NCBI GenBank assembly: GCA_029858565.1
Contig: JAOUEV010000076.1
Coordinates: 1 to 13,206 of the forward strand
Direction: 5' to 3'
Source of the DNA: Nitrospirota bacterium
GTDB taxonomy: Bacteria > Nitrospirota > UBA9217
DNA length: 13,206 nt
In this document: positions 2 through 13,030 of the stretch, in pieces
Layout: every line of letters starts with the position of its first letter
How positions within the stretch are numbered: position 1 is the first letter of the stretch
Made by a program: the position numbers and the translations under genes
The notes under the pieces: model-generated
Databases searched by the model: none
What the model was told of the DNA's origin: nothing
The model's input: only the letters and a program-made list of their open reading frames with translations

Positions 2-3000
2 GCCGAGCCGCCGCCGTTGCCGGCAGGAACGACCGCGCCCATCGACATTACCCAGCCGGTGCCGCTCATCCCGGCAGCGCAGCTGCACATGGGCGACCCG
101 ATCTTCCTCCGCCTGACCGACGGGGACCAGAACAACGATCCCGCTGCGGCGGAAACGGTCCTGGTGACCCTTCGCGACCCCGGGACCGGGGACGTCGAGG
201 TGGTGCGGTTGACCGAGACCGGTCCGAACACCGGTGTGTTCACGGGATACATCGAGACCGACGACCAGGCCGCGGCGATCGGGAACGGCGTGCTGAACGT
301 TGCCGTCGAGACCAGCATCGTCGCCAACTACATCGACTCGGCGGACGCAACGGATACAGAGGTCACAGCGGTGCTCGTGGATCCCTATGGCATGGTGTTC
401 AACAGCTCGACCGGCGCGCCGGTGGACGGGGCGATCGTGTCCCTACTGGACGTCAATACGGGAAACCCGGCCACGGTCTTTGGCGATGACGGTGTCAGCG
501 CCTATCCGGCCAGCGTCACCACCGGCGGGACCGTGCAGGACAGCAGCGGCAGGACCTACACCATGACGCCGGGCGGCTACCGGTTCCCCTTCATCCGGCC
601 CGGACAGTACAGTTTCCAGATCGTCCCGCCCGCGGGCTACCGGGCGCCGTCGCAGGTCTCTGACGCGGCGCTGCAGCAGCTTCCGGGCGCGCCGTTCGCG
701 CTGGTCACCCCGGGTTCGCGGGGCGAGAACTTCACGGTCAATCCCGGGCCGGCGATCCACATCGATATCCCGATCGACCCCACGGGCAACCGGCTCTACC
801 TGATCAAGACCGCGGGCAAGCAGACCGCGGCGATCGGCGATTTCGTGCCCTACCAGCTGATCGTGGAGAACATCGACCCTTCGGGGCCGGTGCCGGCGGT
901 GACGATCACCGACCTCCTGCCCCCGGGCTTCCGCTACCGGAAGGGTTCGGCGCGCTTGAACAGCGCACGCCTGGCCGACCCCGCGGTCTCCGCGGACGGC
1001 AGGAGCCTCACCTTCGCGATCGGCGACCTTGCCGCGTCCGCGAAGGCCGAGGTGCGGTACGTTGCCGAGGTCGGCGCGGGCGCCCGTCCGGGCAGGGCGG
1101 TCAACTCGGCCGTTGCCCAGGGCGACGGCGGCGTGACGTCGAACACGGCCACGGCCACGGTGGTCGTGACCGAGGACCTGGTGCGCGGCAAGTCGTTCAT
1201 CGTCGGACGGGTGTTCGACCGATGCGGCGACGCGGGCGGCGGCGTGGCGGGCGTGCGCATTTACCTTGAGGACGGGACCTACACGTTGACCGACAGGGAC
1301 GGCAAGTACCACTTCGAGGCCCTGCGTCCGGGCGCCCATGTGGTGCAGCTCGATACGGAGACCGTGCCCTCGCAGTATGAAGTGCAGACCTGCGAGGAGA
1401 ACACGCGGTTCGCGGGCAACGCCTTCTCCCAGTTCGTCGATCTTCAGGGCGGCACGCTCTGGCGCGCTGATTTTCATCTCGGCCTTAAACCCAGGATGGT
1501 CGGCGAGGCGGGCATCGAGCTCAGGAGCAGCCTGACCCAGACCGTTCCGTTCACGCCGGAGAACATCGGAACACAGAAGGATACGCTGATCAACTATGCG
1601 GTGCCTATCCACATCGGGTCCGTGCCGGTACGGAACCCGCGGCTGACCATCCTGCTCCCCGGGGGAGTGACCTACCTGGCCGGCAGTGCACGGCTCGATG
1701 CCGCGGCACACAATGATCCCGAGATCTCCGGCGGCGCGCTCACCTTCCGGCTGACGGACCTGCCGGGCGACTGGGAAGGGACCCTGCGGTTCGACGGACT
1801 GGTGCCCCTGACCGGCGCGAGCGGCGATCTGGTCACCAAGGCCATACTGACCGTGGACACTCCCCAGGCAGCGAACTCGCGTACCCCGGTGGTGGACAAC
1901 CTGCTGGTCAGGGAATCGAAGGAGGAGCGGCGGGCGGTGCCGGACATCGTGATCCATCCCCGGTTCGCAACGCTCAGCGCGGAGCTGACCAGCCGGGACA
2001 AGAAAGAGATCGACCGGGTTGTCAAGAACCTCGAAAAACTGTACTTGGACCACATCACCGTTACCGGCCATACGGACTCGCAGCAGATCCGCGGAAGGGG
2101 CAGGAAAAAGTTCAGCGACAACTATGTGCTTTCGCAGGCCCGGGCCCAGGCCGTGGCCGATTACCTCGCGCCGAAGCTCAAGCTCACGCCCGAACAGGTG
2201 ACGATCATCGGCAAGGGGCCTGACGAGCCGGTGGCGGACAACAAGACCGCGAAGGGCAGGGCGCGGAACCGCCGCGTGGAACTCCAGGTCGCGACGCAGA
2301 CCCTGCTGCTCTGGTCGGATATCAGGAACCTGAAGGGCTCGAGCGGAATGACCGCGGTGGCCACCGAGGGCCTGCGGCCCGGAGAGGAATGGGGCGGCGC
2401 GGCGGAACAGAACGGGACGGGCAACGGGTCCGGAAAGACCATGCCGGAGTACGATACTGCGTGGGCCAACCGGGCGCAGCCGGGCCTGGAGTGGCTCTGG
2501 CCGGGCGAGGGACATTCCCCGCCCATCCCGACCATCAAGCTCGCGGTCAAGCACGATCCGAACAGGACCCTCACGGTGCTGCTGAACGGCCAGGAGCTGG
2601 ACGCGATCTACCTTGACGGCACGGTGCGGAACCAGATCGGGACCGTGGCGGTCAGCATGTGGCGCGGCGTGCATATCCTCGAGGGCGACAACATCCTCGA
2701 CGCCGTGGAGCGCGACGAGAGCGGGGCGGAGACCGGCAGGGTCACGCGGGTCGTGCACTGCTCCCGCTCGCCGGTCAATGCCGTGCTGGTCCCGAAAAAG
2801 TCGCGGCTCGAGGCGGACGGCAAGCGGCCGCCGGTGATCGCGGTCCGCCTGACGGACAAGGACGGCCATCCTGCCCGTGAAGGCATGCTGGGCGAATATT
2901 CCGTTGATCCGCCCCATCTGCCGCGCAGGCGCGTCGAGGACCTGCAGCAGTCGCCGCTCATCGAGTCGGCCAGCAGGCGTCTCAAGTACGAAGTGGGCGA

Positions 3001-5560
3001 CGACGGCGTGGCGCTCATCGAGCTGCAGCCGACCATGCAGTCCGGCGAAGCAGTGGTCCGGTTCCCCTTCATGACCGGCGAGCAGGAGGTGCGCGCCTGG
3101 CTCAAGCCCGAGGAGCGCGACTGGATCCTCGTGGGACTGGCAGAAGGCACCTACGGATACAACGTGGCGACCGGGAACATGGTGTCCCTGGGCGCCGCGG
3201 GAGCGGACGAGCACTTCTACGACGAAGGCCGCGTGGCCTTCTACGCCAAGGGAAAGATCAAGGGCGAATGGCTCCTGACCATGGCCTACGACAGCGCCAA
3301 GGCGACCACCGACGGCCGACCGAGCATGTACCAGACCATCGACCCGAACAAGTACTACCTGCTCTACGGCGACGCCACGGAGCAGCGCTATGACGCGGCC
3401 AGCGCCAAGAAGATCTATGTCAAGGTGGAGCGCGACCAGTTCTACGCCCTCTTCGGCGACTTCAGCACCGGCCTGACCGTGACCGAGCTGTCCAAGTACA
3501 GCAGGAACCTGACGGGCGTGAAGTCGGAAATGAAGGGCGAGAATTTCGAATACAGCGTCTTCCTGAGCGAGACCACCCAGGCGTTCGTGAAGGACGAGAT
3601 CCGCGGCGACGGGACCTCGGGCCTCTACCGGCTGTCCCGGAAGAACATCGTGCTCAATTCGGATGCCGTGACGATCGAGGTCCGGGACCGGTTCAAGAGC
3701 GAGGTGGTCCTGTCACGCCAGCCCCTTGCGCGGTACCTGGACTATACCATCGACTATGACTCCGGGACCATCTGGTTCAAGACCCCGGTCTACAGCCGCG
3801 ACGAGAACTTCAACCCCATCTACATCGTGGTGGAATACGAGGCATTTGACGCGGCGGACAAGGCCTATACCTACGGCGGCCGGGGCGCCGTGAAACTGAT
3901 GGACAATAAGGTGGTGGTGGGCGCCACGCACGTGCATGAAGGCAGGACCGGAGGCGAGGGCGACCTGAACGGCGTTGACGCCACGGTGCAGGTCACGCCG
4001 ACGACCAGGATCAAGGCCGAGGCGGCGACGACCCGGACCGATCAGCCCGGCGGCGGCACCGCGGACGGATCGGCCTATCTGGCGGAAGTGCAGCACCGGT
4101 CCGAAAAAATCGAAGGCAAGGCCTATGTGCGCGGCCAGGGAAACGGCTTCGGTCTGGGACAGCAGAACGGAAGCGAGACCGGCACGCGCAAGACCGGCGG
4201 CGATATCATCTACCGGATCAACACTCCCTGGAGCGCCGGAGCGGAGGTGTTCCGGCAGGAGACCCTTTCCACGGGCGCAACGCGGGACATGGCCGAGGTC
4301 CGCGGACGGTACGTCCTGCCGCGGTACGAGGCCCGGCTCGGTGTCCGGCACGCCGAGGACAGGCTGGGCACGGGCGAGGCCTACACCTCGGACCAGGTCT
4401 TCGCCTCCAGCCGGTACCAGTTCACGGACCGCCTGGCCGGACGGGTGCAGCATGACCAGTCGATCGGCTCGGGCGACAGCGCCGACTTCCCGACCCGGAC
4501 CACCCTGGGCCTCGATTACCGGCTGAACAACAGCGCCACGCTCTTCGCGGACCAGGAGTTCACGCACAGCGCGGCCCAGGACACGGCGACCTCCCGCATC
4601 GGCGTCAAGGCCTCGCCCTGGACCGGCGGTCAGCTCAGCTCCACCATGGAACAGCAGACGACCGAGTCCGGCGTGCGGCTCTTCTCCACCACAGGCCTCA
4701 AGCAGGGCTGGCAGATCAACAAGCAGTGGAGCGTCGACGGCGGCCTTGACCGCTCCGCCACGATCCGGAATACCGCCGCGCCCACGGTCAATACGAACGT
4801 GCCGCCCGCGTCGGGCGATTCCGAGGACTTCACCGCGGTCAACCTCGGCGCGGGATACCGCCAGCCGAAGTGGTCCTGGACCGGCAGGGTCGAGCAGCGG
4901 ATGGCCGAGAGCGAGGACAAGTTCTCGACCTTCAACGGCGCAAACGGCGAGGTGAGCGAAGGCCTGGCGCTGGCCGCCGGGCTCCAGACCTTCCGCACCC
5001 TTGCCGTGACCGGACTCACGCGCTTCAACGGCGATCTCCGGATTGGCGCGGCCTACCGGCCGCTCCAGACGCGGTTCATCATCCTCGACCGCTTCGACCT
5101 GATCGAAGCACGGCAGCAGGGATCTGATTTCAACTATGACAACTGGCGCGTGGTGAACAACTTCGTGATGAACATGAAGCACGAGACCCGGACCCAGGCG
5201 TCGCTCCTCTACGGCTCCAAGTACGTGAAGGAGAAGATCGATGAGAACGATTACCGCGGATACACGGACCTGCTGGGTCTTGAGGGCCGGTACGACATCA
5301 CGAAGCAGTGGGACATCGGCCTGCGCGGGCTCAGGCTCCATTCCTGGGCGATCGGCCAGACGAGCTACGGCGCCGGGGCGTCGGTGGGCTTTAACGCGGC
5401 AAAGAACCTCTGGGTCAGCCTGGGCTACAACATCACGGGATTCACGGACCGCGATTTCTCCAATGCCGACTTCACGACCCAGGGCCCCTTCATCAAGCTG
5501 CGCATGAAGTTCGACCAGGTCTCGGTCCGCGAGGCCGTGCGCTGGATCACGGGACAATAG
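2..5560 (+). CDS. Giant outer-membrane/envelope protein, 5'-partial: Ig/SdrD-B-like domains, DUF11 domain(s), OmpA-like peptidoglycan-binding domain and long C-terminal putative beta-barrel
   Basis: ORF of at least 1847 aa. The frame is open from base 2 (GCC GAG CCG CCG CCG TTG), so the TTG at 17 is probably not the true start. DUF11-type motif LIKTAGKQTAAIGDFVPYQLIVEN...ITDLLPPGFRY from ~794. SdrD-B-like IVGRVFD...GVAGVRIYLEDG...TDRDGKYHF at ~1200-1320. OmpA C-like motif VTGHTDS...NYVLSQARAQAVADYL...GKGPDEPVADNKTAKGRARNRRVEL within ~1955-2290. From ~3119 to the end, many G/Y/W-rich alternating amphipathic strands. Stop TAG 5558-5560. Confidence 0.85.
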   Translation, partial: AEPPPLPAGTTAPIDITQPVPLIPAAQLHMGDPIFLRLTDGDQNNDPAAAETVLVTLRDPGTGDVEVVRLTETGPNTGVFTGYIETDDQAAAIGNGVLNVAVETSIVANYIDSADATDTEVTAVLVDPYGMVFNSSTGAPVDGAIVSLLDVNTGNPATVFGDDGVSAYPASVTTGGTVQDSSGRTYTMTPGGYRFPFIRPGQYSFQIVPPAGYRAPSQVSDAALQQLPGAPFALVTPGSRGENFTVNPGPAIHIDIPIDPTGNRLYLIKTAGKQTAAIGDFVPYQLIVENIDPSGPVPAVTITDLLPPGFRYRKGSARLNSARLADPAVSADGRSLTFAIGDLAASAKAEVRYVAEVGAGARPGRAVNSAVAQGDGGVTSNTATATVVVTEDLVRGKSFIVGRVFDRCGDAGGGVAGVRIYLEDGTYTLTDRDGKYHFEALRPGAHVVQLDTETVPSQYEVQTCEENTRFAGNAFSQFVDLQGGTLWRADFHLGLKPRMVGEAGIELRSSLTQTVPFTPENIGTQKDTLINYAVPIHIGSVPVRNPRLTILLPGGVTYLAGSARLDAAAHNDPEISGGALTFRLTDLPGDWEGTLRFDGLVPLTGASGDLVTKAILTVDTPQAANSRTPVVDNLLVRESKEERRAVPDIVIHPRFATLSAELTSRDKKEIDRVVKNLEKLYLDHITVTGHTDSQQIRGRGRKKFSDNYVLSQARAQAVADYLAPKLKLTPEQVTIIGKGPDEPVADNKTAKGRARNRRVELQVATQTLLLWSDIRNLKGSSGMTAVATEGLRPGEEWGGAAEQNGTGNGSGKTMPEYDTAWANRAQPGLEWLWPGEGHSPPIPTIKLAVKHDPNRTLTVLLNGQELDAIYLDGTVRNQIGTVAVSMWRGVHILEGDNILDAVERDESGAETGRVTRVVHCSRSPVNAVLVPKKSRLEADGKRPPVIAVRLTDKDGHPAREGMLGEYSVDPPHLPRRRVEDLQQSPLIESASRRLKYEVGDDGVALIELQPTMQSGEAVVRFPFMTGEQEVRAWLKPEERDWILVGLAEGTYGYNVATGNMVSLGAAGADEHFYDEGRVAFYAKGKIKGEWLLTMAYDSAKATTDGRPSMYQTIDPNKYYLLYGDATEQRYDAASAKKIYVKVERDQFYALFGDFSTGLTVTELSKYSRNLTGVKSEMKGENFEYSVFLSETTQAFVKDEIRGDGTSGLYRLSRKNIVLNSDAVTIEVRDRFKSEVVLSRQPLARYLDYTIDYDSGTIWFKTPVYSRDENFNPIYIVVEYEAFDAADKAYTYGGRGAVKLMDNKVVVGATHVHEGRTGGEGDLNGVDATVQVTPTTRIKAEAATTRTDQPGGGTADGSAYLAEVQHRSEKIEGKAYVRGQGNGFGLGQQNGSETGTRKTGGDIIYRINTPWSAGAEVFRQETLSTGATRDMAEVRGRYVLPRYEARLGVRHAEDRLGTGEAYTSDQVFASSRYQFTDRLAGRVQHDQSIGSGDSADFPTRTTLGLDYRLNNSATLFADQEFTHSAAQDTATSRIGVKASPWTGGQLSSTMEQQTTESGVRLFSTTGLKQGWQINKQWSVDGGLDRSATIRNTAAPTVNTNVPPASGDSEDFTAVNLGAGYRQPKWSWTGRVEQRMAESEDKFSTFNGANGEVSEGLALAAGLQTFRTLAVTGLTRFNGDLRIGAAYRPLQTRFIILDRFDLIEARQQGSDFNYDNWRVVNNFVMNMKHETRTQASLLYGSKYVKEKIDENDYRGYTDLLGLEGRYDITKQWDIGLRGLRLHSWAIGQTSYGAGASVGFNAAKNLWVSLGYNITGFTDRDFSNADFTTQGPFIKLRMKFDQVSVREAVRWITGQ

Positions 5561-5565
5561 ACCGC

Positions 5566-5595
5566 GTTCGCGTATGCTCTGTTCGCGTATGCTCT
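5566..5595. repeat. Perfect 15-bp tandem direct repeat (GTTCGCGTATGCTCT)x2
   Basis: 5566-5580 and 5581-5595 are identical. The last T is the first base of the TTGACC -35 element. Confidence 0.9.
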
Positions 5596-5623
5596 TGACC
5601 AATCGGGATTTATCGGGCATACT
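5595..5623 (+). promoter_or_regulatory. Sigma70-type promoter for the 59-aa gene
   Basis: TTGACC (5595-5600), 17-bp spacer, CATACT (5618-5623). Confidence 0.65.
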
Positions 5624-5684
5624 ATGAACAGGGATGCAGTCTATCCTGAGAGGGAGCGCTAATTCAAGAACAACGGAGGACACC

Positions 5685-5864
5685 ATGAAGATCGAGCTGG
5701 AGGGATCGCTGCTGAAATTCATACCCGAGAACGCCCGGGAGAAGGACGAGCTGAATCAGCTCTGGAACATCGTGATCGACTGCGTGAAGGAGAACCGGAA
5801 GCTCGTGCCCGTGGGGCAGTATATCCCCGGCATGAAGGAAGTGGCGACGTTCAATATCGAGTAG
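5685..5864 (+). CDS. Small hypothetical protein, 59 aa (MKIELEGSLLKFIPEN...ATFNIE)
   Basis: GGAGGA RBS at 5675-5680 precedes the ATG at 5685, which I prefer over the ORF-track start at 5634. Codons show the same G/C third-position bias as neighbouring genes. Flanked by a promoter and a terminator. Confidence 0.8.
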   Translation: MKIELEGSLLKFIPENAREKDELNQLWNIVIDCVKENRKLVPVGQYIPGMKEVATFNIE

Positions 5865-5889: not shown

Positions 5890-5930
5890 ACAAGGCCCGG
5901 GATACTCCCGGGCCTTGTTGTATTTTATTT
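5890..5930 (+). terminator. Intrinsic terminator between the convergent small gene and tRNA-Leu, possibly bidirectional
   Basis: Perfect 13-bp stem ACAAGGCCCGGGA (5890-5902) / TCCCGGGCCTTGT (5906-5918) with loop TAC, followed by TGTATTTTATTT on the + strand. Confidence 0.75.
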
Positions 5931-6064: not shown

Positions 6065-6093
6065 TTGAAACACCGGGACCCCGTCTGTATAAT
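6065..6093 (+). promoter_or_regulatory. Near-consensus sigma70 promoter for the downstream gene run
   Basis: TTGAAA (6065-6070), 17-bp spacer, TATAAT (6088-6093). Confidence 0.75.
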
Positions 6094-6103
6094 ATAGTTC
6101 TCT

Positions 6104-6586
6104 ATGCTAACGGGCTATAACACGGATTTCAAGTTCCAGGGCAGGGTCTATCACTGCCAGACCGAGGACGGCGGGATCCATAATCCCTTCATCACCTCGC
6201 TGATGTACCATCAGGGCGCGATCCTCGCCCGCCGCAAGACGAGCTACGAGGACATCATCAAGGCTGACTGCCTCGATGACGTGGTCCGCGAGCTCATGAT
6301 GGAACAGCACAAACAGATGATCCGCGACCTGATGCAGGGCAAGCTCGACGTGAACGCGAACGCCGCGGCCGCGGACCTGGCGCCGATGCCGCTTCCGAAG
6401 GTCGCACCAGCGCCCGCGCCGGCCCCTCCGGCACCCAAACCCGCGGCGCCGAAGCCGGTGGCCCCTCCTCCCCCCCCGCCGCCCCCCAAACCGGCGCCTC
6501 CGCCTCCGAAGGAGGAGCCCAAGGAGAAGAGCCTCGACGACATCATCCTCGAGTTCCTTGCATCGGAAGACGACAAGAAAAAGTAA
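6104..6586 (+). CDS. Hypothetical protein with globular N-terminal domain, Pro/Ala-rich linker and C-terminal SLDDIILEFL motif (probable RomY-like protein)
   Basis: 160-aa ORF. N-terminus TGYNTDFKFQGRVYHCQTEDGG..NP.I...GAILARRKTSY...VVRELMMEQHKQM, then a Pro-rich segment, then EKSLDDIILEFL. The CDS is well supported. The RomY resemblance is from memory of the myxobacterial family and is unverified. Confidence 0.8.
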   Translation: MLTGYNTDFKFQGRVYHCQTEDGGIHNPFITSLMYHQGAILARRKTSYEDIIKADCLDDVVRELMMEQHKQMIRDLMQGKLDVNANAAAADLAPMPLPKVAPAPAPAPPAPKPAAPKPVAPPPPPPPPKPAPPPPKEEPKEKSLDDIILEFLASEDDKKK

Positions 6587-6649: not shown

Positions 6650-7483
6650 GTGAATGAAGAGACATTGAAGACGCTGAGGGACCGGGCGCGCAGGATCCGG
6701 ATCGATATCCTCAAGATGCTGCATGGCAGCGGCTCGGGCCATACCGGCGGCAGCCTGTCGGCGACGGACATCATGACCGCGCTCTATTTCTACAAGCTGA
6801 AGCACGATCCCAAGAATCCGGACTGGAAGGGCCGGGACTGCTTCATCCTGTCCAAGGGACACGCCGCGCCGGTGCTGTACACCACGCTGGCGCACGCGGG
6901 ATACTTCGCGACCGACGAGCTCTGCACGCTCCGGAAGATCGGGTCGCGGCTCCAGGGCCATCCGGACAGCAAGTACCTTCCGGGCGTCGAGATCTCCACG
7001 GGCTCGCTGGGCCAGGGCCTGTCCGTTGCCTGCGGCGTCGCGCTGGCGCACAAGCTCGACAAGGCCCCGAACCGCGTCTACGCGGTGCTGGGCGACGGCG
7101 AACTGCAGGAAGGCCAGATCTGGGAAGCGGCAATGACCGCGGCCCATTACAAGCTGGACAACCTCTGCATCCTCGTGGACAACAACGGACTGCAGATCGA
7201 CGGGCCGGTCGCCAAGGTCATGGGCGTGGAGCCCATTGCGGACAAGTGGCGCGCCTTCGGCTGGGACGTGCAGGACATCGACGGCCACGATATGGCGCAG
7301 CTGGTCGCGGCGCTCGACAAGGCCGAGACCGTGAAGGCTAGGCCCACGGCCATTGTCTGCCGCACGGTCAAAGGCAAGGGTTCCAAGTGCTTCGAGGGCA
7401 AGGTGGAGTTCCACGGAACCACGCCGTCCAAGGATGAGCTGGAAACGGCGCTGAAAGAACTCGATGAAGCCGTTTGTAAATAA
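6650..7483 (+). CDS. Transketolase, N-terminal (TPP-binding) subunit of a split enzyme
   Basis: GTG start after GGAGG (6636-6640). Motifs GHTGGSLS, ILSKGHA, LQGHP, STGSLGQG, TPP-binding GDGELQEG...DNN and TVKGKG...FHG. Confidence 0.95.
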   Translation: MNEETLKTLRDRARRIRIDILKMLHGSGSGHTGGSLSATDIMTALYFYKLKHDPKNPDWKGRDCFILSKGHAAPVLYTTLAHAGYFATDELCTLRKIGSRLQGHPDSKYLPGVEISTGSLGQGLSVACGVALAHKLDKAPNRVYAVLGDGELQEGQIWEAAMTAAHYKLDNLCILVDNNGLQIDGPVAKVMGVEPIADKWRAFGWDVQDIDGHDMAQLVAALDKAETVKARPTAIVCRTVKGKGSKCFEGKVEFHGTTPSKDELETALKELDEAVCK

Positions 7484-7596: not shown

Positions 7597-8550
7597 GTGA
7601 GTCAGCCACAACAGAAGATAGCTACACGAGACGCATACGGCGACGCTTTGGTCGCCCTGGGCAAGAAACGGGACGACGTGGTGGTGCTGGACGCGGACCT
7701 GTCGGGGTCCACGAAGACCTCGAAGTTCGCCAAGGCTTACCCGGACCGGTTCTTCAACATCGGCATCGCCGAACAGGACATGATGGGAACGGCCGCGGGG
7801 CTGGCAATCGGCGGCAAGCTGCCCTTCGCGAGCACCTTCGCGGTCTTCGCCACCGGACGCGCCTGGGAGCAGATCCGGCAGTCCGTCTGCTACCCGAACC
7901 TGAACGTCAAGGTCGTGGCGAGCCACGCCGGCGTCACCGTGGGCGAGGACGGCGGGTCCCACCAGTCCCTGGAGGACGTGGCCGTGATGCGCGTGATCCC
8001 GAACATGACCGTGATCGTGCCGGCGGACGGACCGGAGACCCAGCAGGCCATCGAGGCCGTGGCCGAATATAAAGGCCCCTGCTACGTGCGCGTGGGCAGG
8101 AACAAGGTGCCGACCATCTGCCCGGAGAACTACCGGTTCAAGATCGGCAAGGCCCACGTGTTCCATGAAGGCAAGGACGTCTGCATCATCGCGACCGGCC
8201 TCATGGTGGCGGAGGCGCTCAAGGCGCGCGACCTGCTCAAGGCCGAGGGGATCGACGCCGGGGTGATCAACATGTCCACGATCAAGCCGCTGGACAATGA
8301 CGCGGTCATCGCCGCGGCAAAGCGCTGCGGCGCCATCGTGACCGCGGAAGAGCACTCCATCATCGGCGGTCTGGGCGGCGCGGTGGCCGAGGCGCTGTCC
8401 GAGTCCGCTCCCGCACCGCTGGTGCGCATCGGCACCCGGGACCAGTTCGGCACGTCAGGCGATCCCGACGGCCTGCTGAAGCACTATAAACTTTCGGCGG
8501 AAGACATCCGCGAAGGAGCGAAGGAAGCGGTAAAGAAAAAGAAGCGGTAA
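7597..8550 (+). CDS. Transketolase, C-terminal subunit (pyrimidine-binding and C-terminal domains)
   Basis: GTG start after GGAGG (7588-7592). Motifs TRDAYG, LDADL, NIGIAEQ, GEDGGSHQ, GPCYVR, TIKPLD and TAEEHSIIGGLG. Confidence 0.95.
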   Translation: MSQPQQKIATRDAYGDALVALGKKRDDVVVLDADLSGSTKTSKFAKAYPDRFFNIGIAEQDMMGTAAGLAIGGKLPFASTFAVFATGRAWEQIRQSVCYPNLNVKVVASHAGVTVGEDGGSHQSLEDVAVMRVIPNMTVIVPADGPETQQAIEAVAEYKGPCYVRVGRNKVPTICPENYRFKIGKAHVFHEGKDVCIIATGLMVAEALKARDLLKAEGIDAGVINMSTIKPLDNDAVIAAAKRCGAIVTAEEHSIIGGLGGAVAEALSESAPAPLVRIGTRDQFGTSGDPDGLLKHYKLSAEDIREGAKEAVKKKKR

Positions 8551-8626: not shown

Positions 8627-9336
<710 letters not shown>

Positions 9337-9340
<4 letters not shown>

Positions 9341-10224
9341 GGGGCTACGGACCGATCTTCTACCTGCTCGAGGCCTACCGGGGCCTGCGTTCCAACAGCC
9401 TGGTCAACGCGCTCGCCCTGGGCACGATCTGCATGGCCATGCTCATTGTCGGCTTCTCCCTCCTGGTGTTCCTGAACCTCACTACCGCTGTGCGCGCCAT
9501 GGGCGACCGTCTCGAGATGTCGGTTTTTCTAAAGGACGGCCTTTCCCCGTCGGACCGGGACCTGTTGCTGACGCGGCTCAAGTCCGAGTCCGGGGTGCGC
9601 AAGGCCGCGCTGGTGACAAAGGACCAGGCGCTGACGCAGCTCATCCGCGACATGAAGGGCCAGGAAAAGCTCTTCCAGTCCCTGGGCGAGAACCCGCTCC
9701 CCGATTCCTACGAACTGACCATCGATCCGGCCTATGCCGGTGACGGGAAGATGGAAGGCATCGCGAAGCGGATCGCGGGATTCTTCGGGGTGGAGGACGT
9801 GTCCTACGGCAAGCAGGGCGCCGAGATGCTCGGCAAGCTTCTGCGGCTGGTGACCTACGGGGGGATGTTCCTCGCGGTCCTGCTCGGCGTGTCCGTGGTG
9901 TTCATCATTTCCAACTCGGTGCGCCTGGCGCTCTATTCGCGGGGCCAGGAGATCGAGCTCATGCAGTGGATCGGCGCCACCCGGTGGTTCGTCACCGCGC
10001 CCTTTCTGGTCGAAGGGATCCTCATCACCACGCTCGGCGCGTCCCTTGCCGTGGGCATCCTCGCAGGATTGTTCCACGCCCTGCCCGGGGACGCCATGCT
10101 CTTCCTTTCCGGTCCCGGCGGATTCCAGTTCCTGCCGACGGGCGTGATCGTGCTCATGATCGGCGGCTGCGGCCTGCTGGGGCTGGCGGGCGGGCTGGTG
10201 TCGGTGAACAAGTTCCTGGATTAG
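9337..10224 (+). CDS. ftsX: Cell division permease FtsX
   Basis: One N-terminal TM segment, periplasmic loop with ENPLPDS, three C-terminal hydrophobic segments, and motif ISNSVRLALYSRGQEIELMQWIGATRWFVTAPFLVEG. Confidence 0.93.
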
Positions 10225-10235
10225 AACGTTTTCCC

Positions 10236-10339
10236 GACACTGAGGACACTGAAAGTGCGTTGACACAGAAGAGGCGGATGAACTTTCTGAAAAGGCATGA
10301 TCAGGATTTTTCATAGGTTCTTTCAGAGTCCTCAGTGTC
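10236..10339. repeat. 104-bp element with 20-bp terminal inverted repeats made of 9-nt tandem units (MITE/REP-like)
   Basis: GACACTGAGGACACTGAAAG (10236-10255) versus CTTTCAGAGTCCTCAGTGTC (10320-10339): 19 of 20 complementary. A third degenerate unit GACACAGAA lies at 10262-10270. Confidence 0.85.
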
Positions 10340-10364
10340 AAAAAAGTAAGTTTCTACCTCCTCG

Positions 10365-11531
10365 ATGCTACAACGAACCTCCATACTCATCTTCTCCCTG
10401 CTCGCCCTGCTGACCTTTTCGCCGGCATTGGCCGGGGACGACGACGCCAGGCAGCAGGAGCTCAAGCGCATCAAGCAGGAGATGGCCGAGAAGAAGAAGA
10501 AGCTCAAGCGCGCGGGGCGCAAGGAGCGGTCCACCCTGTCGGAGCTCGAGAAGATCGACCGGGCGATCCACGCGGGCGGGGCGGAGCTCGCGGAGCAGCA
10601 GATCAAGCTCCGCGAAGCCGAGACCGCGCTTGCGGGCATGGAGCAGGACCGCGAGAGGATCGCCGGGGAGATCGGACGCCTCAGGCCGCTCTTTGCGGCC
10701 CGGCTCCGCGCCCTGTACAAGGTCCAGCGGAGCGGGGGATTCGCGCTCGCCCTGCTGTCGTCGGAGAACATCGATACCGCCACGCGGCGGGCGCGGGCGC
10801 TGGCCGTGATCGCGAACCGGGACCAGCGGCTGATCGCCGAATACCAGGAGACCCTGCGGCGTCTTGAGACGACCCGGGAGGAGCTCAAGGACCGGCAGGC
10901 GGAGATCCGCGGCCGCACCGAAGCGGTCGCGTCAAAGCGCGCTTCCCTTGAGGAGCGGCGCAAGAAAAAGCGGACCCTGCTCGCCTCGATCAAGCAGGAG
11001 AAAAGCTCCTATGAAGAGACGCTCCGGGAGCTCGAGGAATCGTCGATCAACCTCTGGGCCATGATCCACGAGGCGGAAAAGGAGCGTGCCGCGGCCGCCA
11101 GGCGGAAGCAGGAGGCGCCGCAGCCCCGGGTGTCGGGACGCGGTGCCCTTCCCTGGCCCGTCCAGGGACCGGTGCTCACGCGGTTCGGCACGCAGCGCCA
11201 TCCCCAGTTCGGCACGGTGGTCTATCGCCGGGGGATCGAGATCCAGGCGCAGGAAGGCGAGGAAGTGCGGACCGTGTCAGCGGGGCAGGTCGCTTTCGCG
11301 GACTGGTACAAGGGATACGGCAGGCTCGTGATCGTGGACCACGGGGACGGCCTCTACACGCTCTACGGCCACCTGTCGGTGCTGAACACGTCTGCGGGCG
11401 ACCGGGTGGAGCGGGGCCAGGTGGTCGGCCGGGCCGGGGACACGGGCAGCTTCGCCGGCCCGCGGCTCTACTTTGAGCTGCGCAGGAACGGAGTGGCCCA
11501 GGACCCCCTGCTCTGGCTGGCAAAACAGTGA
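10365..11531 (+). CDS. envC: Murein hydrolase activator EnvC family (coiled coil plus degenerate M23/LytM domain)
   Basis: Signal peptide ending SPALA, long charged coiled coil, then M23 domain LPWPVQG...GIEI...GQVAFADWYKGYGRLVIVDHG...LYGHL...LYFELR. Zinc ligands are degenerate. Lies directly after ftsEX. Confidence 0.88.
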   Translation: MLQRTSILIFSLLALLTFSPALAGDDDARQQELKRIKQEMAEKKKKLKRAGRKERSTLSELEKIDRAIHAGGAELAEQQIKLREAETALAGMEQDRERIAGEIGRLRPLFAARLRALYKVQRSGGFALALLSSENIDTATRRARALAVIANRDQRLIAEYQETLRRLETTREELKDRQAEIRGRTEAVASKRASLEERRKKKRTLLASIKQEKSSYEETLRELEESSINLWAMIHEAEKERAAAARRKQEAPQPRVSGRGALPWPVQGPVLTRFGTQRHPQFGTVVYRRGIEIQAQEGEEVRTVSAGQVAFADWYKGYGRLVIVDHGDGLYTLYGHLSVLNTSAGDRVERGQVVGRAGDTGSFAGPRLYFELRRNGVAQDPLLWLAKQ

Positions 11532-11537
11532 CCGCCG

Positions 11538-11546
11538 TGGTATTAT
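11538..11546 (+). promoter_or_regulatory. Possible extended -10 promoter for ctpA
   Basis: TGgTATTAT in an AT-rich spacer. Only a weak -35 (TGGCAA, 11518-11523) at 17 bp. Confidence 0.45.
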
Positions 11547-11602
11547 AGTGAAAATCATTTTACGGAGCGTTCGCTATGACGATGGATCCGGAGGAGAAAG
11601 AC

Positions 11603-13030
11603 ATGATCAAGTTGAACAAGAAGCGGCTGCTGGTCACAGCCCTGATCCTGGTCGTGCTCGGCACGGTAACGCTGTTCACGACCGGTTTCGTGGTCGGGCA
11701 CAAGGTGGCCCATGCCAAGACCGACGCCTACGAGGACCTGCGCGCGTTCACGCGGGCGCTCGAGCTCATCAAGAGCAATTACGTGGAGGACCCGAGCACC
11801 AAGGAACTGATCCAGGGCGCGATCCGGGGCATGGTCTCGAGCCTGGACCCCCACTCGTCCTACATGACCGAGCGGGCCTTCAAAGAGATCAACATGGACA
11901 TCAAGGGCGAGTTCCAGGGCGTGGGCATCCAGATCGGGATCAAGAACCAGCAGCTCACGGTGATCTCGCCCATCGAGGACACGCCTGCGGACCGGGCAGG
12001 GCTCGCCGCGGCCGACAAGATCATGAAGATCAACGACGAGTGGACCAAGGACATGTCCATAGAAGAGGCCGTGGACAAGATGCGCGGGCCCAAGGGCACC
12101 CAGGTGCGGCTCCTGATCTACCGCGAGGGCTGGGACAAACCCAAGGAGTTCAAGATCACCCGCGACGTGATCAAGGTCGCGAGCGTCAAGTCCCGGATGC
12201 TTGAAGGCGACATCGGCTATGTCAAGATCATCCAGTTCCAGGGCAGGACGTCCCAGGACGTGGAAGCTGCCATGAAGAAGCTCGAGGACAAGGGCATGAA
12301 GCGCCTGGTGCTTGACATGCGGAACAATCCCGGCGGACTGCTGGACCAGTCGGTGGACGTGAGCAGCCTCTTCCTTCCCAAGGACAAGCTGGTGGTCTAT
12401 CTCCAGGGCAGGAAAAAGGACGACCGCAAGGACTTCCTGGCAACAGGAGACTTCACGGTCCGCGACTATCCCGTGGTGGTGCTCGTGAACACCGGTTCGG
12501 CCAGCGCCTCGGAGATCGTAGCCGGGGCCCTGCAGGACTCGAAGCGCGCCGTGGTGGTCGGCACCCAGACCTTTGGCAAGGGCTCGGTCCAGACCGTGTT
12601 CCCCCTTGACGGCGGCACGGGCATCCGTCTCACGACCGCCAAGTACTACACGCCCAGCGGCCGGTCGATCCAGAACGTGGGCATCACCCCGGACGTCGAG
12701 GTGAAGCTCCCGAAGGTCAACGGCAAGAACGGCGAGAACGCCCACATCGTGGTGCGCGAGAAGGACCTGGAGCGGCATCTCAAGAACGAGACCGTGAAGG
12801 AGCCCGAGAAGAAGACGGATAAGAAGCAGGAATCGGGCGAGGACGAGCTGGTGATGGAGGCGGTGCCCAAGGACGACAAGGAGGATATCCAGCTCCAGAA
12901 GGCGATCGCCCTGCTCAAGACCGGCGACATATTCAAGAACCTGCCGCCGAAGAAGGAGCAGGAGGCGAAGAAGGAAGAGAAGAAGGAAGAGAAGAAGGAA
13001 GAGAAGAAGGAAGAGAAGAAGGAAGAATAG
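11603..13030 (+). CDS. ctpA: Carboxy-terminal processing protease (peptidase S41A) with PDZ domain
   Basis: ATG 11603 follows GGAGGAG and is preferred over 11576. N-terminal signal/TM segment, SLDPHS, PDZ GVGIQI...PADRAGL, DMRNNPGG, catalytic SASASE and FGKGSVQ, and TTAKYYTPSGRSIQ..GITPD. Confidence 0.95.
   Translation: MIKLNKKRLLVTALILVVLGTVTLFTTGFVVGHKVAHAKTDAYEDLRAFTRALELIKSNYVEDPSTKELIQGAIRGMVSSLDPHSSYMTERAFKEINMDIKGEFQGVGIQIGIKNQQLTVISPIEDTPADRAGLAAADKIMKINDEWTKDMSIEEAVDKMRGPKGTQVRLLIYREGWDKPKEFKITRDVIKVASVKSRMLEGDIGYVKIIQFQGRTSQDVEAAMKKLEDKGMKRLVLDMRNNPGGLLDQSVDVSSLFLPKDKLVVYLQGRKKDDRKDFLATGDFTVRDYPVVVLVNTGSASASEIVAGALQDSKRAVVVGTQTFGKGSVQTVFPLDGGTGIRLTTAKYYTPSGRSIQNVGITPDVEVKLPKVNGKNGENAHIVVREKDLERHLKNETVKEPEKKTDKKQESGEDELVMEAVPKDDKEDIQLQKAIALLKTGDIFKNLPPKKEQEAKKEEKKEEKKEEKKEEKKEE
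12967..13026 (+). repeat. Perfect 12-bp tandem repeat (GAAGAAGGAAGA)x5 encoding (KKEE)5 at the CtpA C-terminus
   Basis: Five identical units start at 12967, 12979, 12991, 13003 and 13015. The tract is all purine. Confidence 0.95.

Follow-up and report, generated by a model that had tools for sequence, protein, structure and literature searches.

The DNA analyzed here is the window, a stretch of 13,206 nucleotides (nt) at the start of a contig of a Nitrospirota bacterium (JAOUEV010000076.1 of GenBank assembly GCA_029858565.1; contig C50 in the following). It opens with the gene of a giant protein that we regard, with a probability of roughly 0.55, as the base subunit and anchor, and probably also as the pore for export, of a surface fibre held together by strand complementation and possibly by covalent bonds. 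Of the five proteins of a gene cassette that would assemble this fibre on the surface of a double-membraned bacterium, the giant is encoded last and is the largest; the other subunits would be a 1543-aa tip protein and two secreted proteins of 362 and 411 aa. These would be joined head to tail, the N-terminal extension of one protein supplying the two strands that are missing from the last DUF11 domain of its neighbour, and the junction might be locked by a spontaneous intermolecular Lys–Asn isopeptide bond. We consider the five proteins a joint system because the order of their genes is fixed and because extensions and truncated domains form a complementary pattern.

The gene of the giant is split by a contig end. 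In the window its open reading frame (ORF; 2..5560, plus strand) is open from the first base, comprises 1852 codons and has its stop within these coordinates. The first 164 codons are found on contig C37 of the same assembly (region L002, 493..2, minus strand), where they run off the contig start. This segment was located by tblastn with the N-terminus of homologue P0003 (81% identical), and the reverse complement of the C37 end shares an exact overlap of 20 nt, in frame, with the start of the window. The full-length protein has 2010 aa, which agrees with the lengths of its homologues (approximately 1950–2060 aa), and the window ORF corresponds to residues 159–2010. Residue numbers of domains follow the window ORF (aa 1 at nt 2) and not the 2010-aa protein. 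Two antisense ORFs (443..3214 and 3713..5722, minus strand; 923 and 669 aa) were rejected as Arg/Gly/Ala-rich shadows in DNA of 65–69% G+C.

On C37, the same strand encodes upstream of the giant proteins of 1543, 362 (p362), 164 (p164), and 411 aa (p411). The tip protein contains three DUF7933 and two DUF7507 domains according to Pfam, p362 is a DUF11 protein to which p411 is related, and p164 (L002 1845-2339) is a single DUF11-like domain; a 189-aa frame at L002 1792-2361 was discarded as a high-GC shadow of the true 164-aa gene. The preliminary description of the window, made from its letters alone, had suggested that the giant could serve DUF11 proteins encoded further upstream, and p362, p164, and p411 are indeed signal-peptide-bearing, secreted DUF11-like proteins located directly upstream. 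For the analysis of synteny, the ORFs of 16 regions from other genomes and of two named loci were compared with the cassette. Sixteen loci contain a giant of the same class; contig ends interrupt L004 and L015, which leaves 14 informative loci. In 13 of them (L003, L005-L014, L017, L018) the giant is accompanied by a p164-like protein and by one or more subunits with the extension; the partnership thus recurs in related genomes. The order is nearly always tip, p362, p164, p411, giant. L003 and L005-L009 have the complete set of four partners, whereas one is absent or undetected in L010, L011, L012, and L017, and distant variants occupy L013, L014, and L018. No other secretion genes were identified within the conserved cassette. 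Frames are broken in the giant of L003 (6535-12547) and in the p411-like gene of L006 (8101-9201), which may reflect sequencing frameshifts or decaying copies.

The proteins of the p362 and p411 types and the giant share a mature N-terminus of the form (A)G-T-x-I-x-N-x-A-x-x-Y, followed about 15 residues on by S-N-x-x-x-V-T. A strict version of this pattern is matched by the N-termini of 11 of 16 giants, most of the other giants have a close variant of it, and an alignment of 10 giants (A4) has G85, T86, I88, N90, and A92 invariant. The strict pattern was found neither in the tip proteins of close relatives (0/7) nor in the N-terminal extension of any of 14 p164-like proteins, a single match lying inside the domain of one of the latter. 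At the other end of the chain, the last DUF11 domain of the tip, p362, and p411 proteins stops right after strand F. Pfam aligns p362 to positions 13–82 of the 114 positions of DUF11 only. A hidden Markov model (HMM) of the complete DUF11 domain of the giants, made of 226 sequences, has 132 positions; the longest alignments of subunits to it reach positions 93–95, where the proteins themselves come to their last residues. The part missing from the subunits reads G-K-A-V-N-T-A-V-A plus T-S-N-T-A-x-A-T-V.

DUF11 has been described as “CLIPPER”, a CnaA-like extracellular stalk domain of fibrillar adhesins in which an intramolecular isopeptide bond is formed by a Lys-Asp-Asn triad (K715, D748, and N806 in PDB 9IFR; PMC12617251). 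In the complete DUF11 domain of the giant, the corresponding residues are Lys (LIK), Asp (ITD), and Asn (AVN), and their spacing matches that in 9IFR. In the truncated C-terminal domains Lys and Asp are kept in 11/11 p411-like, 8/8 p362-like, and 7/7 tip proteins, and the Asn of the extension is nearly invariant. Since these domains retain Lys and Asp only, the Asn of the triad would have to come from an extension. Judged from sequence, the strands that the subunits lack, with the Asn that would form the bond, are similar to the extension at the N-terminus of the following subunit and to that of the giant. At the Asp position, the p164-like proteins carry Asn (8/13) or Asp (3/13), and the p164 belonging to the window's cassette has no Lys at the aligned position.

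In the preliminary description, the giant itself was one polypeptide of more than 1840 aa with several Ig-like modules and an internal OmpA-like domain. This is borne out by the 1852 aa encoded in the window and by two Pfam matches above the curated cut-offs, to DUF11 (E 1.6e-8, 35.3 bits with a cut-off of 24.6) and to the OmpA C-like domain (E 4e-16, 59.6 bits with a cut-off of 27.2; Table 1). The latter contains GHTD, LSxxRA, and NRRVE motifs, which presumably have the role commonly attributed to them in this domain. In a search of the PDB with a profile of the family, the best 60 of 90 matches are throughout peptidoglycan-binding chains of the OmpA/MotB/PomB/YfiB type, and NCBIfam (E ≤ 0.1) yielded OmpA-type and DUF11-repeat models only. 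The stalk preceding DUF11 (aa 1-266) has no Pfam match above the cut-off, a weak match to a Dioxygenase_C-type model at aa 129-197 being the only one. Ahead of the hydrophobic core of the signal peptide, the giants contain a long conserved stretch in which R27 is invariant (10/10 in A4); in this it resembles the extended signal peptide regions found in secreted proteins of very large size.

The remaining 1086 residues (aa 767-1852) match no family in Pfam (E ≤ 0.1), NCBIfam (E ≤ 0.1), or the sequences of the PDB (E ≤ 10). An AlphaFold2 model of this part, computed with a 53-row homologue alignment (identities 36–81%), is all-beta, with a mean predicted local distance difference test (pLDDT) score of 78 and a predicted template modelling (pTM) score of 0.69. 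It contains 32 consecutive long strands of 8–17 residues each with short turns between them, preceded by six amphipathic strands and an inserted beta-sandwich. The C-terminal part is thus predicted to form a very large outer-membrane barrel, closed by 32 strands or by up to 38 if the six preceding ones belong to it. The preliminary description had placed an unusually large barrel from approximately position 3119 onward; the prediction agrees with this, the conserved block beginning at aa 1039 (nt 3116), and the six strand motifs quoted in its support (LGLDYRL, WSVDGGLD, LGAGYR, LEGRYDI, LWVSLGYN, FIKLRMKF) are all present in the translation. Outer-membrane proteins usually end in a terminal Phe, and the last strand, GPFIKLRMKF, has such a residue, like a beta-signal.

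Structure searches did not assign this barrel to a known type. Foldseek found 288 matches in the PDB at E ≤ 0.001, among them SlpA/SDBC, SprA, and LptD, all with template modelling (TM) scores ≤ 0.23. Alignment of the Foldseek list by VIA-align placed the usher FimD first (Z 15.8, root-mean-square deviation (rmsd) 9.6 Å, 341 residues, model residues 312-801), with TonB-dependent transporters, PgaA, porins, and TamA within 1–2 Z units. A wide search of 48,161 representatives was headed by OprC (Z 14.6), followed by FimD (13.3), SprA (13.1, 466 residues), and SlpA (11.2, 450 residues). No barrel family stands out or spans aa 767-1852 end to end, as FimD, TonB-dependent transporters, SprA, and SlpA are tied at Z 11–16. 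Similarly, LptD and TonB-dependent transporters have no match in Pfam or NCBIfam, and their Z of 13–14.6 is level with that of porins, the usher, and TamA. The Usher (PF00577) and SprA_N (PF14349) models do not match the giant at E ≤ 0.1. There is no Pfam match to the autotransporter barrel (PF03797) either, and the AIDA-I and EspP barrels reach only Z 10.9–11 over about 190 residues. The nearest clusters in the ESM Atlas are nameless outer-membrane proteins of about 850 aa. As to the resemblance to an usher or translocon proposed earlier, FimD has the first rank in one list, in a tie with other barrels. Neither by sequence nor by structure was a characterized family found that covers the architecture end to end.

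The alignment with FimD is colinear and covers 24 strands plus the insert, with six strands before the insert and 18 after it. Ushers have the same number of strands, 24 in all, and carry their plug between the sixth and the seventh. That the first six strands are part of the barrel wall is suggested by the start of the FimD, SprA, and SlpA alignments at model residues 310–318. The insert (EIRGDGTSGLY...) is the most conserved stretch of the family; it forms a compact domain of six strands in the model, has a core pLDDT > 90 when folded alone, and superimposes on a domain of SprA with Z 6.3 (rmsd 1.7 Å, 65 residues, 22% identity).

From these features the following assembly can be envisaged. 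The giant would sit at the fibre base as the last subunit, because it has the extension and lacks a truncated acceptor domain. Its OmpA-like domain would tie the fibre to the peptidoglycan, with the barrel of 32–38 strands in the outer membrane. As the extension and the stalk should be outside and the OmpA domain must be periplasmic, the chain of the giant would most likely be threaded through the lumen of its own barrel. The barrel would also act as the export channel of the growing fibre in an usher-like manner, a channel that the inserted beta-sandwich might gate. The p164 protein has neither the extension nor the catalytic residues and might for this reason be a chaperone or cap that holds donor strands non-covalently. 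The domain order, the predicted barrel, the synteny, the truncated domains, and the conserved motifs are direct results of the analysis. We infer strand exchange, the covalent bond, barrel threading, and the export role from them, the last two as well as the function of the insert as a gate from topology alone. It is possible, if doubtful, that the cassette encodes a pilus independent of both sortases and the chaperone-usher machinery, in which split CLIPPER strands are donated and locked by Lys–Asn bonds and the fibre ends covalently in a protein that is terminator, anchor, and pore at once and whose chain passes through its own barrel of as many as 38 strands. The proposed lock would be a natural reaction of the SpyTag/SpyCatcher kind.

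Several observations weigh against this assembly. Some of the N-terminal extensions do align to positions 92–129 of the giant-DUF11 HMM, but not significantly (E 0.15–25) and in two registers. Locus L016 contains a related giant that has no recognizable partners. Pfam scans of the cassette proteins detected no PapD-like two-domain chaperone, and no energy source is evident. The position of the first six strands in the barrel wall and that of the insert in the lumen are read from the order of secondary-structure elements only. Folded alone, the insert is most similar to phage tail and fibre domains (Z 8.5–7.0), and there is no usher among the best 50 structure matches listed, which is why we do not adopt the label “usher plug”. 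For the plug domain sought by the preliminary description, the insert is a candidate of about 75 aa at the place where an usher carries its plug, although on its own it did not match usher plugs among the matches listed. We know of no solved structure of a chain that passes through its own barrel while a peptidoglycan-binding domain sits behind it. Finally, all sequences stem from metagenome-type assemblies.

Chaperone-usher pili (FimD/PapC, with the tips FimH/PapG and the terminators FimI/PapH) are similar to the cassette in several respects. Their subunits have an incomplete last Ig domain, all of them but the tip have an N-terminal extension, the polarity is the same with the extension at the base, the chain is closed by a terminal subunit, and the operon includes the gene of an outer-membrane barrel. 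In the model of the giant, an insert follows the sixth strand, the place of the plug in ushers, and FimD aligns to model residues 310-801 with Z 13.5–15.8 and an rmsd of 9–13 Å. However, the usher has 24 strands, whereas the giant has 32 after the insert alone and 32–38 in all; the Usher HMM is silent on it, and the cassette lacks a PapD-like two-domain chaperone. Unlike in usher systems, a single polypeptide would serve as pore and as terminator, the two parts being separated by an OmpA domain, and in contrast to pilins the subunits consist of DUF11/CLIPPER domains minus two strands and with an isopeptide triad. In the same genome, the Usher HMM has one match (E 2.4e-28; 1012-aa open frame) at G000:C41:62463-63728 (plus strand), the sole one genome-wide at E ≤ 10. 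This is a genuine usher homologue, so that the cassette shares its genome with a chaperone-usher system of the classical or archaic kind.

Single-chain barrels of more than 30 strands are known from SprA, the translocon of type 9 secretion, which has 36. SprA provides the longest structural alignment with the giant (466 residues, Z 13.1, rmsd 13.2 Å), although its Z is tied with that of unrelated barrels. No PorV- or Plug-type partners and no C-terminal sorting domains were seen in the cassette, and the taxa differ. A peptidoglycan-binding domain and a barrel in one chain are also found in Deinococcus SlpA of the S-layer deinoxanthin-binding complex, whose barrel has approximately 30 strands. 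SlpA differs from the giant in forming a trimer, in using an SLH domain together with a coiled coil, and in lacking both an adhesin stalk and a cassette of subunits.

The DUF11 adhesins of Bacteroidota carry sorting domains of the type 9 system (PMC12617251). The Acinetobacter CLIPPER adhesin B9T28_05395 (PDB 9IFR) resembles the giant in its domain family, its Lys-Asp-Asn triad, and the combination of a stalk with an OmpA-like anchor (PMC12617251). It differs in being a single chain with an intramolecular bond and without a giant barrel after the OmpA domain, whereas in the cassette the last domain is split over two proteins. For the chemistry proposed here, the closest counterparts are BsaA of Clostridium perfringens, a member of the TasA family with an “exchange and lock” mechanism of N-terminal strand complementation followed by an intermolecular isopeptide bond (bioRxiv 10.1101/2024.11.04.621531), and the threads of the archaeon Sulfolobus, in which head-to-tail strand complementation is combined with an intermolecular isopeptide bond from Asn to the N-terminal amine (PMC9715654). 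Their subunit folds are unrelated to those of the cassette, neither includes a barrel component, and their hosts, a Gram-positive bacterium and an archaeon, have no outer membrane; in contrast to both, the intermolecular bond in the cassette is deduced only. The tafi of haloarchaea have a membrane-anchored last subunit (PMC11821415), which offers an analogy to the giant at the fibre base. Text matches to “DUF11” in that article refer to DUF1102 and were disregarded. No paper on the giant family or on the cassette was found in the full-text literature searched, which does not cover most subscription journals.

The placement of the N-terminal array separates our reading from that of the preliminary description, which had considered the Ig/DUF11 modules probably periplasmic. 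In its full form this alternative regards the giant as an usher or translocon outside the fibre, whose array is tethered to the peptidoglycan and recruits separate DUF11 proteins for export through the barrel. From what is established for its family, the OmpA domain lies in the periplasm, the N- and C-terminal domains of ushers are periplasmic Ig-like domains, a paralogue of the second class described below has Ig array and OmpA-barrel as separate proteins, and FimD heads one of the structure lists (Z 15.8), albeit in a tie with unrelated barrels. Nevertheless, we consider a purely translocating giant improbable, as a mere recruiter would not need the subunit-type extension that the mature protein carries at its N-terminus and that all 10 aligned giants keep invariant. 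With this extension and the extracellular stalk role described for DUF11/CLIPPER (PMC12617251), it appears more likely from the sequences that the array is part of the fibre than that it is a periplasmic appendage, and we regard the earlier assignment as probably wrong. The converse simplification is an anchor without export function, in which case the giant would be base subunit and link to outer membrane and peptidoglycan while other routes export the subunits and bring its array to the surface. An OmpA domain and a beta-signal-like last strand are what a plain anchor would have, and both the missing sequence match of the barrel to ushers or SprA and the missing PapD-type chaperone are in keeping with it. 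Yet the conserved cassette contains no other secretion genes, a barrel of at least 32 strands with short loops on both sides is far beyond the needs of an anchor, and the extension must meet the secreted subunits on one side of the membrane; we hold this explanation, too, to be unlikely.

Two further alternatives deny a fibre of several proteins. The giant could be a self-contained adhesin of autotransporter type, exporting nothing but its own stalk next to independent adhesin genes. The order of stalk and C-terminal barrel recalls type Va autotransporters, in which a 12-strand barrel with a helical linker is located at the C-terminus. With roughly three times as many strands and no autotransporter match in Pfam, and considering that partners with truncated domains complementary to the extension occur in fixed order in 13 of 14 informative loci, we judge this very unlikely, even though adhesins consisting of a stalk and an OmpA-like anchor are known (Acinetobacter B9T28_05395; PMC12617251). 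Least credible to us is a tether between outer membrane and cell wall, or a large porin, without any role in a fibre, as in Deinococcus SlpA or OmpM. The giant does have the layout of SlpA, with a peptidoglycan-binding domain and a very large barrel, and SlpA/SDBC chains align over 439–450 residues (Z 11–12; Foldseek TM about 0.2). But SlpA has no adhesin stalk or extension motif, the gene is patchily distributed (61 of 401 genomes sampled in the phylum), unlike that of an essential envelope tether, and the tight linkage to subunit genes would be left unexplained. The preliminary description had itself named three findings that would speak against its proposal, namely that the C-terminal region is no barrel, that it belongs end to end to a known family, or that conserved partners are missing; instead, a barrel is predicted, no family covers it, and the partners are conserved.

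Table 1. Features of the giant gene and of the region following it. Residues are those of the window ORF and positions those of the window.
Feature	Residues (aa)	Position (nt)	Strand	Basis or remark
N-terminal stalk, Ig-like and prealbumin-like modules	1-266	2..799	+	conserved in homologues
Complete DUF11/CLIPPER domain	267-387	800..1162	+	Pfam PF01345, profile 4-114 of 114
CarboxypepD_reg/SdrD_B-like prealbumin-fold domain	400-467	1199..1402	+	Pfam E 1e-6 and 3e-5, under curated cut-offs; match at aa 400-461
Second DUF11-like Ig domain	~495-640	1484..1921	+	alignment with the complete DUF11; without Lys and Asp; Pfam silent
OmpA C-like peptidoglycan-binding domain	655-757	1964..2272	+	Pfam PF00691
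Gly/Glu-rich linker, predicted disordered	767-810	2300..2431	+	pLDDT < 50
Two Ig-like beta-sandwiches	811-931, 936-1046	2432..3139	+	AlphaFold2, pLDDT mostly 85–94
Six amphipathic strands, probably first barrel strands	1079-1191	3236..3574	+	AlphaFold2
Inserted beta-sandwich (~75 aa), candidate gate or plug	1193-1266	3578..3799	+	AlphaFold2
32 consecutive long strands	1272-1835	3815..5506	+	AlphaFold2, structure searches
Short C-terminal helix	1839-1850	5516..5551	+	AlphaFold2
Terminator-like hairpin closing the cassette		5890-5918	+	13 pairs, then T run
Promoter-like site ahead of the next gene		6065-6093		11/12

The region downstream of the giant holds housekeeping genes, coding for a transketolase in two halves, FtsE, FtsX, an M23 peptidase, and an S41 protease; they were rejected as partners, lying behind the terminator-like hairpin. 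The first protein after the hairpin (window 6104-6586, plus strand; 160 aa) has no Pfam match, and its second half is nearly pure Pro/Ala/Lys (PAPAPPAPKPAAPKP...PPPPPPPKP). The transketolase is encoded by two genes (window 6650-7483 and 7597-8550, plus strand), one for the N-terminal half, which binds thiamine pyrophosphate, and one for the pyrimidine-binding and C-terminal half. The S41 carboxy-terminal protease (window 11576-13030, plus strand) ends in a tail of EEKK repeats (KKEEKKEEKKEEKKEEKKEE), the DNA of which also yields leucine-rich and serine-rich shadow ORFs on the minus strand. Next upstream of the cassette, the minus strand of L002 on C37 encodes a LytTR DNA-binding protein (181 aa, 7978-8523), a sigma-54-dependent response regulator (456 aa, 8689-10059), and a hybrid histidine kinase with a seven-transmembrane sensor (855 aa, 10190-12757), all of which are possible regulators of the fibre genes. 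A cytochrome c554-like multihaem protein of 486 aa (L002 13590-15050, minus strand) is located at the far end of C37.

The family of the giant is large. Its last 853 residues match 2179 of 8000 scored candidates at E ≤ 1e-3. The candidates, from assemblies of Nitrospirota, Deltaproteobacteria, Thermoanaerobaculia, and Proteobacteria, are named “OmpA family protein”, “TIGR01451 repeat protein”, or “hypothetical protein” only. Among 1.84 billion representatives at 50% identity, a threshold of E ≤ 1e-3 yields 3450 matches, of which 1440 reach E ≤ 1e-30, and in most of the 150 representatives listed the barrel module is at the C-terminal end. With 2179 candidates and 3450 representatives matching, conservation of the barrel region is not due to chance. 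In the phylum sample the 61 matching genomes were counted at E ≤ 1e-20, and within the window's own family 39 of 63 genomes match. A second class of giants (1400–4600 aa; e.g., L019 952-12971 and L020 2-12991) has only the region of aa ~1035-1350 in common with the window protein; a giant of this class ends directly in ...VVAAF with the classic terminal Phe. In one complete genome, two genes overlapping by 4 nt encode such a second-class giant in parts, the Ig array as a protein of 2582 aa and the OmpA domain with the barrel as one of 1424 aa that has its own signal peptide.

The cassette looks like an undescribed class of fibre assembly, for which the evidence is entirely computational. If our reading is correct, it would constitute a further route to surface fibres in bacteria of the Gram-negative type, besides the chaperone-usher, type IV, type V, and curli systems. 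The covalent lock by split isopeptide domains has so far been reported only from one Gram-positive bacterium and one archaeon, and the giant would be an outer-membrane machine in which pore, terminator, and cell-wall anchor are fused in one chain. With 38 strands it would have the largest single-chain barrel known, compared to the 36 strands of SprA, and a barrel of 32–38 strands would test ideas on how the beta-barrel assembly machinery (BAM) folds very large barrels. The split domains could supply new tags for protein ligation. As the family comprises 3450 clusters at 50% identity and is spread over Nitrospirota and assemblies of Deltaproteobacteria and Acidobacteriota type, such fibres may play a part in how environmental bacteria aggregate and form biofilms.

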